Sequence record: PZ019086.1
From: a phage
Direction: 5' to 3' (one strand)
Length of the DNA stretch: 64,000 nt
This document shows, piece by piece, positions 5,990-37,467 of this stretch. The notes beneath the pieces were generated by a model, which saw only the letters and a list, made by a program, of their open reading frames with translations, was not told where the DNA came from and ran no database searches. Within the stretch, counting starts at the first letter, position 1, and each line of letters opens with the position of its first letter. Both the position numbers and the translations under genes were made by a program.

Positions 5990-6358
5990 TTAATTACCAA
6001 TCGTATATTTAGGAACGAGTTTCCATTCGTGTTTTTGTTTAAAAGAAATAACTCGAAAGTTATTGGTTAAATCTTTCATAAAAGTTCTTTGACCAGGAAC
6101 GATTTCAATCAGTCCCCAATCTTCTAACAGCCATGCAATTGAATCACGACGAACTTCATCTTCTTCTGTCATTTCAACCTGACGGCCATCCATACGAAGC
6201 ATTTCTTTAAAATGAACGATATAGTATAGTCCTTTTTTCTGAAGAATGTGGCAGGACTGATACAGAACTTTATCTTTATTATTAGCAATTCCCATACGAG
6301 TCAAAGTTTCTTTTACTTTCAGAAAATCTTCAGGTTTTTTAAGAGTAATTTCAATCAT
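5990..6358 (-). CDS. regA: Translational repressor RegA
   Basis: 122 aa, position and length as T4 RegA. Confidence 0.85.
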   Translation of the reverse strand: MIEITLKKPEDFLKVKETLTRMGIANNKDKVLYQSCHILQKKGLYYIVHFKEMLRMDGRQVEMTEEDEVRRDSIAWLLEDWGLIEIVPGQRTFMKDLTNNFRVISFKQKHEWKLVPKYTIGN

Positions 6359-7933: not shown

Positions 7934-8620
7934 TTAAAAATCGTGGGTAGAATCAGCTTCAAGAGCTACTACATAATTCGCATGTTCACCTTCAAATTTA
8001 GCAGCGCCTTGTTTACCTTTTGCCCAGAGAAGAAGTTTATAATTTCCTGGTTGCATTTTCATATTTGCCATATTGATAATGAAATTAAATGTATTTTCAC
8101 CATCATAATCACCAAGAGTCAAAGAATATTTAACACGGGTCAAAGCAGAATCTTCCACTTTATTAAAACCGTTAATTACGATTTTACCTTCTTTTACTGT
8201 GATAGCAATTGTATCAATCTGCAGACCACGAGATACACGCAACAGCTGTTGAAGGTCTTCAGCTTTAATTTCAGTAACAACAGATGCTACTGGGAATGGA
8301 ATTGGTTTATTAGGAGCAACTACTGTACTCGGATCGGCTGCTGGCCAAAAAATTGTTGAACGGGCATCAGCAATTTTAATATTACCATCTTCTGACTGGG
8401 AAATTTCTGCATCATCATTAACTAGGGACAGAATACCGAGAAAACCGTTCAAATCGTAAATTGCTACATCAAAATCAATAGTGTCAGAAATATTTGCTTC
8501 CGCATAAGTTGTACCATTAACTGCGCGAGTCATAATAAATTGACCAGATTTAAGCATAATACCAGAGTTAATAGTAGCGAAATTTTTAAGCAGAGCAGTA
8601 GTATCTTTAGACAGTTTCAT
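7934..8620 (-). CDS. 45: Sliding clamp
   Basis: 228 aa, same as T4 gp45; position. Confidence 0.9.
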   Translation of the reverse strand: MKLSKDTTALLKNFATINSGIMLKSGQFIMTRAVNGTTYAEANISDTIDFDVAIYDLNGFLGILSLVNDDAEISQSEDGNIKIADARSTIFWPAADPSTVVAPNKPIPFPVASVVTEIKAEDLQQLLRVSRGLQIDTIAITVKEGKIVINGFNKVEDSALTRVKYSLTLGDYDGENTFNFIINMANMKMQPGNYKLLLWAKGKQGAAKFEGEHANYVVALEADSTHDF

Positions 8621-8675
8621 GTAATTTCCTTCAATTCAAATGAGATTTAATTTTATAACTAATTTAATAAAGCAA

Positions 8676-9065
8676 TTAACGATTAAAATCAGCAGCAATT
8701 GTTTCAGCAACAATTTGAGCAGCAACAATTAGACGTTCATCTGCATTACCGCAATAATCATCTTCAAGGCGCTCACCACATGAAGTCATAATAAATTTGG
8801 CACCAGCATTTAGAGATTCTGCTGTATGTTTGCGCATCAGTTCAATCCATTTATTACTTACTTCACGATCGATAGCTTCATAATACGCATGACGAGCAGG
8901 TGCAGATTTAATTTTGCTCTGAATAACTTCCATCGCATTATCAGAAAGAGACAAAACCCATGCTCGACGAATTTTATTTTGGTTTTGTGGATTTGATTCA
9001 GAACGCACGTGTTTTGGCTGAATATCTTTTACATCAACAGTATAATTCACCGTAATTTTAGTCAT
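8676..9065 (-). CDS. rpbA: RNA polymerase binding protein RpbA
   Basis: 129 aa, position after 45 as in T4. Confidence 0.75.
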
Positions 9066-32842: not shown

Positions 32843-33364
32843 TTATCCTTTCATTGAAGGTGTAACAGTTGTTAAATACTTAATCATAGCTTCAGCTTCT
32901 GATTTTGATAATGAAATTTCTCCATTGTTTTGACGAATAGAAATAAAATCCGGATGACGGTCACCACCAGCTTTTAAAACACACATGTAAGTATCAACTT
33001 CGCCTTCAATATTTGAAATGATTGAAGCAGTTCCACATGAATGTGGTTGTTGATAAACTAATACAGCTTTTCTTCCACCGTTTGACTGTTCATAAACTTT
33101 TAACACATCAAACAAATCACTTCTTTTATCAATAGCTAAGATGTTGTTTTCATCTTCAATGTTAAATCCTTCGGATATTTCATAAAGTGTCACCCATAAA
33201 TCGCCAATATCAATGACAGCATTCACCTTTCCATGATTTTCAAGAGCATTACAAATTTTCTTAATTTCATCATAACTCATTTTAATAATATCATCTCCTT
33301 GAATAAAGAAGATGTCATTTTTAAATTCAACGCGAATTAAACCACTTTCACTTGAAATAAACAT
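32843..33364 (-). CDS. Hypothetical protein, paralog A of a tandem pair
   Basis: 173 aa; shares GFNIE-E and C-terminal IRQ...L-K-EA--L-KYL--V-P-M pattern with the adjacent 183-aa protein. Confidence 0.6.
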   Translation of the reverse strand: MFISSESGLIRVEFKNDIFFIQGDDIIKMSYDEIKKICNALENHGKVNAVIDIGDLWVTLYEISEGFNIEDENNILAIDKRSDLFDVLKVYEQSNGGRKAVLVYQQPHSCGTASIISNIEGEVDTYMCVLKAGGDRHPDFISIRQNNGEISLSKSEAEAMIKYLTTVTPSMKG

Positions 33365-33370
33365 ATTTCC

Positions 33371-33922
33371 TCACTTTGAAATCATAGTTGGAATGACAGA
33401 ATCAAGATAAGTCTTTAATAAAACAGCTTCTTCTTTGTTTAATACAACAACATTAACATCATTTACCGATTGACGAATAGTTAAGACATCTCCCTCTTCA
33501 TAGCATTTTGATACATTTAAAACAGTTTCATAATTTTGATTACAAGCGTTAGTAATAATAGCATTGCAATTTTTAAACCATTTTAAACCATGTTTTCTTT
33601 CATTAGAATAATAGAAATATTTAATCTTAGCTATAAAATTATCCCAATTATTAATTGATAAGCATATTGACTCGCTTTCAATATTAAATCCTGGGCATAA
33701 AGAATAAAAATGAATTTTATGCTCATCATTAATGCTTACAATTTTATCAGTGTATGGTTTTTCAATTTGGGTTAAATGAATAATTTCGCTAGGCGTAAAA
33801 TATAGCATATCGTCTTCTTGCGTCAAACGATACATATTATTTACTTTTTCTATAGCCAATTCACCAAAAAGTGAACTAACTTCTAGTACTAATCGTTTCA
33901 TATTAATCCTTTTTATTGGCAT
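33371..33922 (-). CDS. Hypothetical protein, paralog B of a tandem pair
   Basis: 183 aa; see paralog A. Confidence 0.6.
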   Translation of the reverse strand: MPIKRINMKRLVLEVSSLFGELAIEKVNNMYRLTQEDDMLYFTPSEIIHLTQIEKPYTDKIVSINDEHKIHFYSLCPGFNIESESICLSINNWDNFIAKIKYFYYSNERKHGLKWFKNCNAIITNACNQNYETVLNVSKCYEEGDVLTIRQSVNDVNVVVLNKEEAVLLKTYLDSVIPTMISK

Positions 33923-34169
33923 GAATTTGTTCTAAAATTTTAGAGTATTCCTTTGTATCAGATTTACGTACAATCGATACACTATAAGGCATACTATCGG
34001 TGTCTTTTATAAAGCGTTCCAAATGACACTCTAACAAAATTTCTGGGTTATAAATCGTGTACATCAAATTACCTGTTGCTCCACGATATTGACAGATTTC
34101 TACTGATTGAGCATCATTCCACAATTTTGTTAAGACTAAATCGCCTACTTCTAATTTAGGAAAGCTCAT
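33903..34169 (-). CDS. Hypothetical small protein
   Basis: Start moved from track TTG to ATG at 34169 (MSFPKLEVGDL...). Confidence 0.5.
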   Translation of the reverse strand: MSFPKLEVGDLVLTKLWNDAQSVEICQYRGATGNLMYTIYNPEILLECHLERFIKDTDSMPYSVSIVRKSDTKEYSKILEQIHANKKD

Positions 34170-34170
34170 G

Positions 34171-34356
34171 TTATTCACCAATTAAAGTTTCAATATAAGA
34201 ATCAAGATTTACTTTAGCTTCTTCCATAAGAGTTTTGTATTTAATCTTATTAGCATGTCCGGAGAAAGCTGATTCATCAATAACTGTTGATGCATGAACA
34301 GCTTTACTATACATCTCAATTAATTCTCTTAATTTAAAAGCCTGCTCACTTGTCAT
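34171..34356 (-). CDS. Hypothetical small helical protein
   Basis: 61 aa; ATG start overlapping upstream small-ORF stop. Confidence 0.5.
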   Translation of the reverse strand: MTSEQAFKLRELIEMYSKAVHASTVIDESAFSGHANKIKYKTLMEEAKVNLDSYIETLIGE

Positions 34357-34460
34357 TACATGCTCCTTTGAATAATATCAATAATGTTGTTCACCAGATT
34401 ATAAGTAAACATTGGGTAATTATATTGAATCATCACATACACAACAAACAAAACTTTCAT
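34356..34460 (-). CDS. Small hydrophobic peptide (34 aa), not in ORF track
   Basis: ATG with AGGAGAAGAGA RBS just downstream of an early promoter; TAATG overlap with next gene; approximate. Confidence 0.35.
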   Translation of the reverse strand: MKVLFVVYVMIQYNYPMFTYNLVNNIIDIIQRSM

Positions 34461-34484
34461 TCTCTTCTCCTTGGCAGTTGGCAA

Positions 34485-34520
34485 GATTACTATATCATAA
34501 CCTTGCCAACTTGTAAACCA
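34485..34520 (-). promoter_or_regulatory. T4-type early promoter (internal to the island)
   Basis: Minus-strand GGTTTACAAGTTGGCAAGGTTATGATATAGTAAT; approximate. Confidence 0.5.
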
Positions 34521-34676
34521 TTAAATGACGTTTTCAATAAAATTCTGGAGTTTTGTGTGAGCATCAACCATGATTTTCATTTCTTCCTTTGCAAAAGCTA
34601 TGCCTCTTTCCCTAGAAGAACACTCATAGTCAGAAACTGCATTAGCATATTCTTCAATTAGCTTCATTAAAAACAT
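34521..34676 (-). CDS. Small protein (about 51 aa), not in ORF track
   Basis: Minus-strand ORF MFLMKLIEEYANAVSDYEC...; approximate. Confidence 0.3.
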   Translation of the reverse strand: MFLMKLIEEYANAVSDYECSSRERGIAFAKEEMKIMVDAHTKLQNFIENVI

Positions 34677-34683
34677 CTGCTTT

Positions 34684-34878
34684 TCAGTTTTCATTATTCC
34701 ACCTAATCATTTCAAGATATTGAACTAACTTAGCTTTAGATTTATCCAAATCTCTTTTAGCTGCTTCTATACCATCGTATGAGTATCCTTCACAATGCTC
34801 AACTGCTAATTGGTATGAATCTATTTCAACATCACGTGCTAATTTAATGATTTTTTCAAACTGTTCACGCGTTAGCAT
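34684..34878 (-). CDS. Hypothetical small helical protein
   Basis: 64 aa; ATG start. Confidence 0.5.
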   Translation of the reverse strand: MLTREQFEKIIKLARDVEIDSYQLAVEHCEGYSYDGIEAAKRDLDKSKAKLVQYLEMIRWNNEN

Positions 34879-34880
34879 AC

Positions 34881-35084
34881 TTAAACTCTCGTATTATGAT
34901 CGATAATTTCATCAAGAAACATATCTAAAGCTTCTACAGCATTATCAACTTTAGCTTCAAGTTCTTCAGCATCTTTATTTGCAATGCCTGACGAAAACCA
35001 AGCAAAGTCACTAAGTTCCTCATCTGCTTTGCGAATTAAAGCTACCAATTCTTTAATTTTATCTGCTTGTTCAATGCTAATCAT
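34881..35084 (-). CDS. Hypothetical small acidic helical protein
   Basis: Start set to in-frame ATG at 35084 ([13 protein letters not shown]...), TAATG-coupled to upstream gene. Confidence 0.5.
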   Translation of the reverse strand: MISIEQADKIKELVALIRKADEELSDFAWFSSGIANKDAEELEAKVDNAVEALDMFLDEIIDHNTRV

Positions 35085-35272
35085 TATTCCACCACATATG
35101 AAAGAGAGAATATTGCACACGCCATGTGAGTTGCAGCTTCATCACACATATCATAACGTTTCTTAAGAAGTTCTACAAGTTCTTCACTAGTAACGTCATC
35201 CACGTTGACGAAAAAATCACCATTAATGATGACGTAGATATTTCCTTCTTGATTGAGTGCTTCAATTTTCAT
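35084..35272 (-). CDS. Hypothetical small protein, first gene of the island operon
   Basis: Start set to ATG at 35272 with AAAGAGGAG RBS; the track N-terminal extension overlaps the promoter. Confidence 0.5.
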
Positions 35273-35295
35273 GATGTTCTCCTCTTTATCCGATG

Positions 35296-35332
35296 GTTGT
35301 ATAGTATCACAGCTCAAATGGAAAGTAAACCG
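35296..35332 (-). promoter_or_regulatory. T4-type early promoter driving the accessory island
   Basis: Plus strand tgtatagtatcac...agtaaac; approximate. Confidence 0.6.
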
Positions 35333-35345
35333 GTAAAATGAAAAA

Positions 35346-35363
35346 AGTCTCCCGAAGGAGACT
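35346..35363 (-). terminator. UUCG-loop hairpin after rI.-1
   Basis: agtctcccgaaggagact; approximate. Confidence 0.5.
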
Positions 35364-35367
35364 AATG

Positions 35368-35754
35368 TTATTCGAGGGAAAGAAGATATTTGCTCTGGTA
35401 AAACATCCCAGTAATATCATCTATCGTGCTTTGAATGGCCGGAGGCATTTCTTTATAAATGCTGTTAGATTGGTCTAGTATGCGATCAATCATTTTAATT
35501 GTGTCGGTAGGAAGTTTACTGGCATCTGGAATAGAAGGCGTGTATTTTCTACCAGAATACCCCAAATATTGCTCACCAAATTTATCAATCAAATCTGGCA
35601 ACTCAGAGAAAATAAAATCGTATGCTTTGTGTCTAGCATAACTTTTAGTTTCAAAATGCGCAGAATGAAAATAAGCTTGTGCAGCCATTAATAAACCTAA
35701 GTATTCATCTGCCTTTGAAGGTTTTCCACTTTGTGAAAAGTCGCTGAATTTCAT
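35368..35754 (-). CDS. Hypothetical protein (rI.-1 position)
   Basis: 128 aa; overlaps rI stop. Confidence 0.65.
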
Positions 35755-36044
35755 TCAGTCTCCAATTTAATGTTCATAATTCTAGCGTATGATTGTGCCA
35801 TCTCCGCGCCTCGCTCTATACATTCAAAATCGGAAGAACACGGGTCATTTTTATAAGTCGTTCGCATAAAACTATAGAACTGTTCAGATGATTCTACGCT
35901 TTTATTTTCAAAAAGCGTATAAACATGTCTAATACCAGATTCCATAAATTTATCAAAATGAGGATCGACATTCGCTTCAATCGGCGGAGATAAAACAAAC
36001 GCTAATCCTAGCATGGCGAATAATGCCGCTGCTTTTAAGGCCAT
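35751..36044 (-). CDS. rI: Lysis inhibition regulator rI
   Basis: 97 aa; signal-anchor MALKAAALFAMLGLAFVLSPPIEA; matches T4 rI closely from memory. Confidence 0.9.
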   Translation of the reverse strand: MALKAAALFAMLGLAFVLSPPIEANVDPHFDKFMESGIRHVYTLFENKSVESSEQFYSFMRTTYKNDPCSSDFECIERGAEMAQSYARIMNIKLETE

Positions 36045-36056
36045 AAAGGCCTCCTA

Positions 36057-36269
36057 TCATTTTTGTCCTGTATTTACTTTATGCCGATGCACGGCCTTAA
36101 CTTTATCAAGGTATTTTTCAAAATTTCGCAATCTAGTATAGTCTGCCGGAGATTGGTTGAGTGATACTTCTCGACGCAAAGCTGAAATGATATTTCCAAC
36201 TTCCCTACGAATTTCATCTAATTGAAGAACAGTAAGATTGCGAAGTTGCTTTTCAGTTAATTGTAGCAT
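36057..36269 (-). CDS. Hypothetical protein (rI.1 position)
   Basis: 70-aa ORF. Confidence 0.55.
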
Positions 36270-36311
36270 ATATACCCCTTTAGTTAGATAAACCTATTTA
36301 TAACTTTTGCA

Positions 36312-36893
36312 CTAACCGAGCTTTTTAGTTAATTCATTCCAATGTTTTCTACACAAAGAAACATAAATTTCATCACCAATACAGATTTGATTACCTTCTT
36401 TAACTGGTGTTCCATCTTCCATTAATCGAGCTGTCATAATAGCTTTTTTACCACAATGACAAACTGCTTTTAGTTCAATAAGTTTATCTGCAATCGCCAA
36501 AAGTTCTTTAGAACCTTCAAATAATTTTCCAGCGAAATCAGTCCTTAGCCCATAAGCCATAACAGGAACATTATATGTATCAACAATTCGGCTTAATTGA
36601 TGCACCTGTTCAGTTTTTAAAAACTGGGCTTCATCTACAAATACACAATGAATATCTTTTTGTGCTTCAGCCCATTTATAGAACTCAAAAATATCCATAT
36701 CATCCGTAATAATATTCGCTTCCTGCTTAATTCCAATGCGAGAAACGACTTCACAGACAGAATCACGAGTATCAATAGCAGGCTTAAGAACTAATACGCC
36801 CATTCCGCGTTCTTTATAATTATGTGCAGCAGTCAAAAGAGAAGCAGATTTTCCAGCATTCATTGCTGCATAAGTAAAAATTAAACTCGCCAT
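36312..36893 (-). CDS. tk: Thymidine kinase
   Basis: 193 aa; P-loop AAMNAGKS and C-terminal zinc ribbon cysteines. Confidence 0.9.
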   Translation of the reverse strand: MASLIFTYAAMNAGKSASLLTAAHNYKERGMGVLVLKPAIDTRDSVCEVVSRIGIKQEANIITDDMDIFEFYKWAEAQKDIHCVFVDEAQFLKTEQVHQLSRIVDTYNVPVMAYGLRTDFAGKLFEGSKELLAIADKLIELKAVCHCGKKAIMTARLMEDGTPVKEGNQICIGDEIYVSLCRKHWNELTKKLG

Positions 36894-36902
36894 ATCACCT
36901 TC

Positions 36903-37088
36903 TTAAAGCGTATTCACATAAGCTATTAATTCGTTTTCTTTCTTATCAAACCGGTCAGCAAATTCTTCCTGTTGTTCGGGAGATAGCGGGCCATATTCAT
37001 CATAAAAGGTGTTTGCTTCTGTATGCTCATCTAGAAGTTCATGGATAAGCTCAAACAATTTATCTTTTTGTTCTTTACTCAGACTCAT
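36903..37088 (-). CDS. Hypothetical small acidic protein (tk.1)
   Basis: 61-aa ORF. Confidence 0.5.
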   Translation of the reverse strand: MSLSKEQKDKLFELIHELLDEHTEANTFYDEYGPLSPEQQEEFADRFDKKENELIAYVNTL

Positions 37089-37258
37089 ATATTAATTTCC
37101 AGAAGTTTTAAAATAATTCGCTTTTGCTTAAATATTTCCATAGTTAAATGATCAGTATCTTTTTGACCAATTCCGATGGCAAAACCTTTATTAACAGCGA
37201 GTTCAATTAAATTATCAAGCTCGCGTAACACCTCATATTGTAACTCAGAACTATTCAT
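37085..37258 (-). CDS. Small protein (57 aa), not in ORF track
   Basis: ATG/TGA overlaps with both neighbours; approximate. Confidence 0.4.
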   Translation of the reverse strand: MNSSELQYEVLRELDNLIELAVNKGFAIGIGQKDTDHLTMEIFKQKRIILKLLEINI

Positions 37259-37467
37259 TTTGGTTTACCTTCTTTAACAAAATCGGGATAAGGATAAAAT
37301 CCTGAATAAAATCCTTCACCTTTATGATTAATGCATCCTTTATTAGAGCAATAGCACCAATAATCGAAATCACAAGCCATTTCATCATTGCATAAAGCAA
37401 AAACAACTGGCCATTTACACTTTTCACAATGTGCATTTTTAAGAATGCTAGTTTGGCTCATAACCAT
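37255..37467 (-). CDS. Cys-rich small protein (tk.2 position)
   Basis: Start set to ATG at 37467; CEKCKW...CYCSNKGC. Confidence 0.5.
   Translation of the reverse strand: MVMSQTSILKNAHCEKCKWPVVFALCNDEMACDFDYWCYCSNKGCINHKGEGFYSGFYPYPDFVKEGKPK

Follow-up and report, generated by a model that had tools for sequence, protein, structure and literature searches.

The window analysed here, a 64,000-nucleotide stretch of phage DNA (PZ019086.1), carries on its minus strand, at 34171-35272, six tightly packed small genes, followed by a seventh just outside this range. They comprise orthologues of T4 mobD.5, mobD.4, mobD.3, mobD.2a and mobD.2, together with a 61-aa gene, F, and a gene for a phage Tudor-domain protein; this is the mobD.5-mobD.2 cluster of small genes in a T6-like Tequatrovirus. 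Judged by the expression of their T4 orthologues, these are genuine early genes, and in T4 they had been annotated before as mobD.5 to mobD.2. The genes and the signals that accompany them are as follows.

36903..37088, minus strand: DUF7438 copy adjoining tk, the fifth copy in the window (PF24219, 69.6 bits)
35346..35363, minus strand: intrinsic terminator of the tk-rI.1-rI-rI.-1 unit, AGTCTCC-TTCG-GGAGACT then TTTTTT (terminator scan)
35301..35330, minus strand: T4-type early promoter of mobD.5, GTTTAC, 18-nt gap, TACTAT (read from the sequence)
35084-35272, minus strand: mobD.5 orthologue, 62 aa, GAGGAG before ATG
34881-35084, minus strand: mobD.4 orthologue, 67 aa, GGTGGA before ATG
34684-34878, minus strand: mobD.3 orthologue, 64 aa, GAGAG before ATG
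34521-34694, minus strand: mobD.2a orthologue, 57 aa, AGGTGGA before ATG
34489..34517, minus strand: second early promoter, before mobD.2, TTTACA, 17 nt, TATAGT, with TG before the -10 element
34476..34511, minus strand: 15-bp RNA hairpin enclosing the spacer and -10 element of the mobD.2 promoter
34356-34460, minus strand: mobD.2 orthologue, 34 aa from ATG (42 from TTG), AAGGAG before ATG
34171-34356, minus strand: gene F, 61 aa, AAAGGAG before ATG
33903-34169, minus strand: Tudor gene, 88 aa, GGTGA before ATG

A preliminary description of this DNA had counted at least six small open reading frames of 34-88 aa here; six do lie within the range, but the 88-aa Tudor gene falls 2 nt outside it. 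The overlapping stop and start codons that it reported are borne out for TAATG, a one-base overlap that occurs twice (at the mobD.5/mobD.4 and mobD.2/F junctions), but not for ATGA, of which there is no true case. The remaining junctions are a 2-nt spacer (mobD.4/mobD.3), an 11-nt overlap (mobD.3/mobD.2a), a 60-nt gap with a promoter inside (mobD.2a/mobD.2) and a 1-nt spacer (F/Tudor). Good ribosome-binding sites had been noted with reason, and the frames said to be missed at a 60-aa cut-off number two, mobD.2a and mobD.2, rather than three.

Substitution patterns relative to 5-15 T-even orthologues, from which pN/pS was derived, support the coding status of the cluster frames. The ratio is lowest in mobD.2a (0.08) and mobD.3 (0.09), followed by the Tudor gene (0.12), mobD.2 (0.16, with substitutions distributed 15/2/34 by codon position) and mobD.4 (0.24), and is higher in mobD.5 (0.45) and in F (0.46, resting on few substitutions). 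Three of the seven genes lack a match to the Pfam family DUF7438 (PF24219). These are mobD.5, which belongs to phrog_3024 (E = 4e-42), occurs in 535 phage records, has a net charge of -8 and an invariant ten-residue C-terminus, and is predicted to form three strands and two helices (AlphaFold2, pLDDT 85.7); mobD.2, a hydrophobic peptide (GRAVY +0.68) that matches phrog_3515 at E = 6.5e-22; and the Tudor gene, with a PF24144 score of 136.5 bits.

The other four share one ancestry. The small-protein family suspected in the preliminary description is real: mobD.4 (57.3 bits), mobD.3 (63.2), the intact mobD.2a (52.4) and F (55.9; phrog_4859, 193 phage records) all match DUF7438 over the whole length of its model, at 52-63 bits against a gathering cut-off of 25 bits. 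With four copies in the cluster and a fifth by tk, the family corresponds to Pfam DUF7438 and to PHROGs 653, 2758 and 4859, and the copies in this phage are ordinary members of it, with no difference from the family at large. The N-terminal pattern E-Q-[AF]-x-K-[IL], likewise proposed as a common trait of several of these frames, is indeed found in three cluster proteins and is a hallmark of DUF7438. It occurs exactly three times in the six-frame open reading frames of the 64-kb window, against 0.14 expected from composition, each time inside the cluster and at protein residues 5-10 or 4-9; in mobD.2a the motif has diverged to E-K-Q-M-F-L.

Family members are cytoplasmic and acidic proteins devoid of a Cys-rich site, with net charges ranging from -2 to -10; mobD.4 and the tk.2-type copy reach -10, mobD.3, mobD.2a and F only -2 to -3. 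The AlphaFold2 model of mobD.3 consists of two helices, at residues 4-29 and 34-63 (pLDDT 88.7), and the predicted fold of the family is accordingly an antiparallel two-helix hairpin of about 60 aa, onto which the other copies were placed by alignment. DUF7438 is confined to T4-like phages; a search of 1.84 billion proteins gave only 22 cluster representatives at E <= 1e-3. Its paralogues fall into six groups, 18-35% identical between groups and 76-99% within, and each locus surveyed holds 3-6 copies. The copy beside tk groups with T4 Tk.2; T4 Tk.1, Tk.2, MobD.3 and MobD.4 were already together in phrog_653. These comparisons show the four cluster genes and the tk-side copy to be ancient paralogues of one family, each group of which is kept by purifying selection (pN/pS 0.08-0.24 for mobD.2a, mobD.3 and mobD.4; 0.46 for F).

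The corresponding T4 region (NC_000866, 57828-58722) shares gene order, strand and flanks with the present phage, rI.-1 lying upstream in both, and its terminator and both early promoters match those described here. Nucleotide identity to T4 is 97% for mobD.5, 82% for mobD.4, 95% for mobD.3, 94% for mobD.2a and 93% for mobD.2. Two of these genes differ in structure. The inter-helix loop of mobD.4 is 7 residues longer here than in T4; among phages it varies in length through in-frame 12- and 21-nt indels, its alleles are mosaic, and by eye no link was apparent between them and the tk.2 allele types. mobD.2a encodes 57 intact residues here, whereas the T4 reference copy is cut to 38 aa by a frameshift: the aligned T4 and KMB42 sequences each have a 1-nt gap, and the family-model match of the T4 gene is split over two reading frames.

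Homology with phages of the T4 type stops at about 34345-34355, and a variable segment begins exactly after the mobD.2 stop codon. Beyond this point T4 carries mobD.1 and then the HNH endonuclease MobD, whereas this phage and T6 carry F, the Tudor gene, two y05I-like genes and a 153-aa open reading frame. The preliminary description's placement of the whole group in an island is largely mistaken: mobD.5 to mobD.2 are backbone genes found in more than 500 phage records, and only F, which T4 lacks, lies in the variable segment, as its first gene. Tequatrovirus, Gaprivervirus and Mosigvirus all keep DUF7438 genes linked with tk-rI and y05I-like genes; a locus search anchored on rI.-1 returned 5 viral contigs only.

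The placement of these genes at the head of an operon holds for transcription, as mobD.5 is preceded by a terminator and, after it, an early promoter of the T4 type. The terminator is conserved in T4 and T6, and in Gaprivervirus RZ a hairpin of different sequence occupies its position. T4, T6 and RZ all have the promoter elements GTTTAC and TACTAT unchanged; the mobD.5 ATG follows the -10 element at a distance of about 28 nt, and the T4 counterpart of this promoter has been mapped by primer extension (PMC1702504). A generic sigma-70 scan did not list this promoter because only 8/12 positions match. The promoter before mobD.2 matches at 10/12 positions in the promoter scan, is conserved in T4, T6 and Mosigvirus JS09, and corresponds by position to T4 Pe57954, which is named together with Pe57.9 in a study reporting a DksA response of the T4 early promoters at 57.9 kb (PMC6024815). 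The cluster is predicted from these signals, conserved with the terminator across genera, to be driven by two host-sigma-70 promoters of the T4 early type, located ahead of mobD.5 and of mobD.2 respectively. A single early transcription unit includes F together with the Tudor and y05I genes.

The second promoter coincides with a conserved RNA structure. The hairpin at 34476..34511 can form only in read-through RNA from the mobD.5 promoter, and has a minimum free energy of -24.3 kcal/mol (z = -5.18). Across 12 sequences, 98.9% of its cells are paired; three pairs carry changes in both partners, and two pairs alternate between G-C, G-U and A-U. An Rfam search of 33300-37300, hairpin included, matched no family.

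Published T4 data bear directly on when these genes are used and whether they are needed. All T4 cluster transcripts are early (PMC9697503, Table S2). The mass spectrometry of early infection proposed as a check on the frames is available in the same dataset and answers it in part, with MobD.3 and MobD.4 recorded as early proteins and MobD.5, MobD.2 and MobD.2a not detected; Tk.1 and Tk.2 appear there as middle proteins. The T4 mobD.2a copy, absent from the proteomics, is the frameshifted one. In CRISPRi-ART knock-down, all guides quoted from the supplement for mobD.2 to mobD.5, tk.1 and tk.2 are scored 'Not Fit' (PMC11879866), and a phage deleted from nrdC.11 to mobD.3 is viable (PMC9825161). 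These experiments show every DUF7438 member tested to be dispensable on laboratory E. coli. Phage Bas43 has its mobD.5 joined to the C-terminal portion of a y05I-type (MobD.1-like) protein, implying that the genes between them were lost by natural deletion.

Small early T-even proteins are frequent inhibitors of host enzymes, as the preliminary description pointed out, and those of this cluster may be so too; searches for a relative of established function gave no lead to any particular target, whether from homology, fold match or published phenotype. The family profile met chance matches only among PDB sequences (best PCNA, E = 0.12), and the cluster proteins had no match in NCBIfam. Foldseek comparison of the mobD.3 model with the PDB returned none at E <= 0.001, the best being generic hairpins at E of about 0.4-0.5; against BFVD it returned uncharacterised phage proteins only, the best from T4-like enterobacterial phages. 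The mobD.5 model likewise had no PDB match at E <= 0.001, and a literature search on the gene names, DUF7438 and the PHROG identifiers found no functional study. The two-helix fold, as modelled, is generic and not indicative of function. Several apparent leads were set aside. A PF24448 match on P0106 had hinted that mobD.5 resembles the C-terminal domain of y05I/MobD.1, but P0106 is a deletion fusion and BLASTP gives E = 2.6 and 0.14. Further domain fusions that might have served as functional clues (P0017, P0061, P0066 and P0081) arise by read-through, deletion or chimerism and carry no such information.

We propose, with a probability of roughly 0.5, that the DUF7438 proteins are early two-helix paralogues that act non-catalytically, each binding a partner one-to-one, as accessory factors of host takeover or counter-defence. 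The proteins would be too small for catalysis, the hydrophobic positions on their predicted helices are more numerous than a lone hairpin could bury, they would be made in the first minutes of infection, and several neighbours have stop and start codons that overlap or lie almost side by side, which would permit coupled translation; taken together, these features make one-to-one partner binding the most likely mode. Binding may take the form of homo- or heterodimeric helical bundles, or of a clamp on a helix of the partner protein. The N-terminal T-x-E-Q-x-x-K-(I/L) would then serve mainly as a helix cap and first core turn, and the variable inter-helix loop, clearest in mobD.4, would set specificity. 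The target would be a host factor or a defence protein, modulated or blocked by the hairpins and relevant only in some hosts or conditions. Counting against the proposal, mobD.3 and mobD.2a are nearly invariant across hundreds of phages (of the 589 phage records with mobD.3, 452 have it at 95-99% amino-acid identity), which suits a conserved partner better than an arms race. The failure to detect MobD.5, MobD.2 and MobD.2a in T4 proteomics also counts against it, although T4 mobD.2a is frameshifted.

AsiA, Arn, Dmd and Stp are characterised small early T-even effectors, and offer a parallel. DUF7438 proteins share with them early expression, small size and laboratory dispensability, as judged through the T4 orthologues; the known effectors act by binding rather than catalysis, a mode that DUF7438 may share, but they are single genes, whereas DUF7438 is multi-copy. 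A more ambitious version, to which we give only a small chance, casts the six paralogue groups as modular decoys, each neutralising a different host protein, with the loop conferring specificity and the presence or absence of individual copies (F, tk.1, the frameshifted mobD.2a) tuning T-even host range. Should a target be found, the best-studied phage would gain one more host-takeover or counter-defence module.

A different role, which we judge unlikely, is that the hairpins serve the phage's own programme instead of acting on the host, for instance as adaptors or regulators. Their partners might be nearby proteins that putatively bind nucleic acid, namely the Tudor protein and the pair of y05I/MobD.1-like putative transcription factors, or the adjacent lysis-inhibition genes. 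The strong conservation of orthologues, the linkage to tk-rI and y05I-like genes maintained in three genera, and the early transcription unit common to F, the Tudor gene and the y05I genes would all suit such a role; however, T4-like synteny is generally kept regardless of function, knock-down has no fitness effect, and phages with lost or frameshifted copies are viable. Kinship with the cytoplasmic antiholin RIII, itself a hairpin, would have tied the family to lysis inhibition, but the family profile aligns with T4 RIII at an hhalign probability of 0.2%, and the link was rejected.

T7 Gp5.9, Ocr and T4 Arn work by filling the site at which a host nuclease or restriction enzyme binds DNA. By analogy, the hairpins might dimerise as ROP-like four-helix bundles or act as acidic DNA mimics, binding RNA or DNA or blocking the DNA site of such an enzyme. 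The net charge of -10 within some 60-67 residues (mobD.4 and the tk.2-type copy) invites this comparison, as do size and fold, since SSV1 D-63 and ROP are hairpin dimers of about 60 aa with the same antiparallel two-helix arrangement. Yet strong acidity does not appear to be a family trait, given the charges of mobD.3, mobD.2a and F. SSV1 D-63, although among the best Foldseek matches, is not a significant one (E about 0.5, TM 0.5) and lacks sequence similarity; neither structural nor sequence matches reach significance, and Ocr, Arn and ROP are absent among the matches listed. We regard this possibility as less probable still. Least probable is that some or all of the frames are decaying or non-functional filler, held by linkage and compact genome organisation. 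Laboratory dispensability, the frameshift of mobD.2a in T4 and KMB42, the block missing from Bas43, the failure of mass spectrometry to see MobD.5, MobD.2 and MobD.2a, and the pN/pS of mobD.5 and F are all compatible with decay. They are outweighed by pN/pS of 0.08-0.24 and a third-position excess in mobD.2a, mobD.3, mobD.2 and mobD.4, by frames intact in more than 500 phages and in three genera, by detection of the MobD.3 and MobD.4 proteins and by good ribosome-binding sites.

Both the genes and the family have entries in GenBank, Pfam and PHROGs, and the T4 orthologues have been covered by published transcriptomic and proteomic work and by knock-down screens, so the present analysis adds no new object. 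What it contributes is the recognition that T4 Tk.1, Tk.2 and MobD.2a and the T6-type F share a family with MobD.3 and MobD.4, that mobD.2a of the T4 reference carries a frameshift, that a conserved RNA hairpin overlaps an internal early promoter, and that several widespread product names are wrong. The 'Helicase loader' label, attached to F in many records through phrog_4859, finds no echo in Pfam, which gives only DUF7438, or in NCBIfam, which gives nothing. In many records mobD.3, mobD.4 and mobD.5 bear the name 'Molybdopterin-guanine dinucleotide biosynthesis protein MobD', and neither Pfam nor NCBIfam detects a MobA/MobB-type domain to justify it; the name appears to have arisen when T4 mobD (mobile endonuclease D) was mistaken for one of the molybdenum-cofactor mob genes.

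The packed small open reading frames at 34171-35272 form an ordinary T-even accessory cluster in which no departure from the known pattern is seen. The preliminary description was correct about the cluster and right in its family guess; the genes, the DUF7438 family and early expression are already on record. Altogether 502 T-even phage records match the 1.45 kb around the cluster at 90-98% identity (207 of them covering at least 80%), and, set against the annotations of T4 and T6, it falls between rI.-1 and nrdC.11. By sequence, the locus corresponds to the mobD.5-mobD.1 region of T4, arranged as in T6. The six cluster genes, defined by sequence reading and the ORF list, and the neighboring elements are as follows.

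Genes and signals in and around the cluster
36903-37088, minus strand: fifth DUF7438 copy, beside tk (69.6 bits)
35363-35346, minus strand: terminator (hairpin and T-run) after the rI.-1 stop
35084-35272, minus strand: mobD.5, 62 aa
34881-35084, minus strand: mobD.4, 67 aa
34684-34878, minus strand: mobD.3, 64 aa
34521-34694, minus strand: mobD.2a, 57 aa
34517-34489, minus strand: second promoter (TTTACA, 17 nt, TATAGT, upstream TG), in the 60-nt gap 5' of mobD.2
34356-34460, minus strand: mobD.2, 34 aa
34171-34356, minus strand: F, 61 aa
33903-34169, minus strand: phage Tudor-domain gene (PF24144), 88 aa, just below the cluster range
32843-33922, minus strand: two tandem y05I/MobD.1-like genes, 183 and 173 aa, each with T4_y05I_N and T4_y05I_C domains

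In place of the one mobD.1 gene and the HNH endonuclease MobD of T4, two y05I/MobD.1-like genes, putative transcription factors by sequence, here follow the Tudor gene. A purine-rich Shine-Dalgarno-like stretch lies 5-9 nt 5' of the ATG in all seven genes from mobD.5 to the Tudor gene, and the junctions comprise two TAATG overlaps, a 1-nt and a 2-nt spacer, one 11-nt overlap and one 60-nt gap. Of the two kinds of stop/start overlap originally described, TAATG thus holds at two junctions and ATGA occurs at none; likewise, two reading frames rather than three escape a 60-aa cut-off, since only mobD.2a and mobD.2 fall below it. Compared with 5-15 distinct orthologous sequences per gene, substitutions pile up at third codon positions, and pN/pS is 0.08 for mobD.2a, 0.09 for mobD.3, 0.12 for the Tudor gene, 0.16 for mobD.2 and 0.24 for mobD.4; mobD.5 reaches 0.45 and F 0.46, the latter on few substitutions. 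The small packed frames are therefore genuine genes and not chance occurrences.

Four of them, mobD.4, mobD.3, mobD.2a and F, match Pfam DUF7438 over its full length at 52-63 bits (cut-off 25) and are placed in phrog_653, phrog_2758 and phrog_4859, which bears out the proposal that a shared N-terminal motif marks a small-protein family. The six-frame ORFs of the whole window contain E-Q-[AF]-x-K-[IL] three times against 0.14 expected, each time inside the cluster and near an N-terminus. Pairwise identity among the window's copies is just 19-39%, and BLASTP detects mobD.4/F as the sole pair; the motif had thus correctly sighted a family that is provable by profile. The genes mobD.5 (phrog_3024) and mobD.2 (phrog_3515) belong to small families separate from DUF7438 and have no match in the Pfam copy searched. 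T4 Tk.1 and Tk.2 (8350-8756 in the T4 locus) are also DUF7438 members; the copy beside tk is a divergent allele of the tk.2 group, and a tk.1-type gene is absent from the window. For the genes in 34171-35272, Pfam and NCBIfam return DUF7438 alone or nothing, and give no support to labels carried by many GenBank/RefSeq records, among them [quoted passage not shown], "helicase loader", "kilA anti-repressor", "XRE family transcriptional regulator", "cell wall hydrolase" and "virion structural protein".

Searched exhaustively with a profile, 1.84 billion cluster representatives yielded just 22 proteins at E <= 1e-3, so DUF7438 is confined to this phage lineage; family sequences labeled E. coli or Shigella sit on ~165-170 kb contigs, which are taken to be whole phage genomes. 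Scanning the family model across 17 related loci gave 3-6 copies per locus in six paralogue groups (mobD.4, mobD.3, mobD.2a, F, tk.1-type and tk.2-type), with 18-35% identity between groups and 76-99% within them. Members are present in Tequatrovirus, Gaprivervirus and Mosigvirus, and the duplications are therefore old. Phage records number 589 for mobD.3 (with 95-99% amino-acid identity in 452), 535 for mobD.5 and only 193 for F. Homology to T4-type phages runs through the mobD.2 stop codon and ends exactly past it (window ~34345-34355); in another set it ends past the F stop codon (window ~34166). Within the mobD.5-F cluster, then, F alone lies in the variable segment, and mobD.5-mobD.2, initially assigned to an island, are backbone genes. 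Such breaks at gene boundaries, drawn from four related loci (L004 and L015-L017), point to cassette-like shuffling of whole small genes. In Salmonella phage Manna, nrdC.11 directly follows F, and in HY01, OES_C-3 and ESCO58 a y05I-like gene follows mobD.2 without F or the Tudor gene.

Variation within genes takes several forms. In the mobD.4 loop there are in-frame indels of 12 and 21 nt as well as mosaic alleles, and mobD.2a has a 1-nt indel in T4 and a different one in KMB42. Because the two halves of T4 mobD.2a (5997-6178 in the T4 locus, from NC_000866) align to the family model in two separate frames, the gene is annotated at 38 aa in the reference; it is a frameshifted copy of the 57-aa DUF7438 gene that is intact in the window and in most relatives. 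The C-terminal 10 residues of MobD.5 and the preceding C-x-E-x-A-T-H (window 35084-35130) are invariant even in Gaprivervirus despite 49% overall identity; the ribosome-binding site and start of mobD.4, which overlap this end, can account for only the last few codons. In phage TadeuszReichstein (Bas43), the 96-aa protein P0106 joins the first ~50 residues of MobD.5 to a C-terminal y05I-type (MobD.1-like) part, implying that this viable phage has lost the genes in between, among them the DUF7438 block, by natural deletion.

In T4, all orthologue transcripts are classed as early; at the protein level MobD.3 and MobD.4 fall in the early class, Tk.1 and Tk.2 in the middle class, and MobD.5, MobD.2 and MobD.2a are entered as undetected (PMC9697503 Table S2). 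Mass spectrometry of early infection, a check suggested at the outset, is thus positive for MobD.3 and MobD.4 and holds no data either way for the other three. A spontaneous nrdC.11-mobD.3 deletion is viable (PMC9825161), and the CRISPRi-ART guides quoted in the supplement for mobD.2, mobD.2a, mobD.3, mobD.4, mobD.5, tk.1 and tk.2 are all "Not Fit", that is, knock-down without a fitness effect (PMC11879866). Modeled by AlphaFold2 from an alignment of 39 sequences, mobD.3 forms two helices (residues 4-29 and 34-63, pLDDT 88.7); the prediction for mobD.5 combines three short strands with two helices (pLDDT 85.7). A profile search of the PDB yielded no functional relative (best E 0.12), and Foldseek with both models no PDB match at E <= 0.001. 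The BFVD hits were all uncharacterised phage proteins, headed by entries from phages including Merlin, EcS1 and PM2, and no paper in the literature searched gives a function to the mobD.5-mobD.2 genes or DUF7438.

DUF7438 proteins are small, acidic (net charge -2 to -10), cytoplasmic helical hairpins, made early, conserved, and dispensable in the laboratory. A 60-residue hairpin would be too small to be an enzyme, its hydrophobic positions probably exceed what two helices can bury, and in several adjacent genes the stop and start codons overlap or almost touch, which makes coupled translation possible. On these grounds the likeliest general mode, at roughly even odds (about 0.5), is one-to-one binding, whereby hairpins would form dimeric or mixed helical bundles or dock onto a partner protein, with a benefit visible perhaps only in particular hosts or conditions; any particular target class is far less probable. 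Since the modeled helix begins at residue 4, the conserved T-x-E-Q-x-x-K-(I/L) may mainly serve to cap that helix and build its first core turn, and not as an active site.

Other readings remain. The hairpins could serve the phage's own programme, together with the Tudor and y05I neighbors or in lysis inhibition, but the link to the T4 antiholin RIII failed when similarity was tested. ROP-like or DNA-mimic behavior is a second such reading, with strong acidity seen in only two copies. Decay of the reading frames is contradicted both by selection and by mass-spectrometric detection.

Downstream of the terminator, the mobD.5 promoter (GTTTAC, 18-nt gap, TACTAT; ~28 nt 5' of the ATG) has both elements invariant across T4, T6 and Gaprivervirus RZ; in T4 it was mapped by primer extension, and RegB does not affect its transcript (PMC1702504). 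According to a review, the T4 replication origin oriC lies near rI.-1 (PMC3016281), which in the window (~35270-35760) is close to the terminator and this promoter. The second promoter, conserved as far as Mosigvirus, corresponds by position to T4 Pe57954, which belongs to a set of early promoters with downstream genes at least 2-fold up when DksA is absent (PMC6024815). Around its spacer and -10 element lies a 15-bp RNA hairpin (34476-34511, minus strand; outer pairs 34472-34475 with 34517-34520) that matches no Rfam family and could arise only in RNA reading through from the mobD.5 promoter. The hairpin has a minimum free energy of -24.3 kcal/mol (z = -5.18), and 98.9% of cells pair across 12 phages. 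Both sides have changed at three pairs in Mosigvirus JS09, and two pairs alternate among G-C, G-U and A-U, a pattern that favors RNA over DNA.
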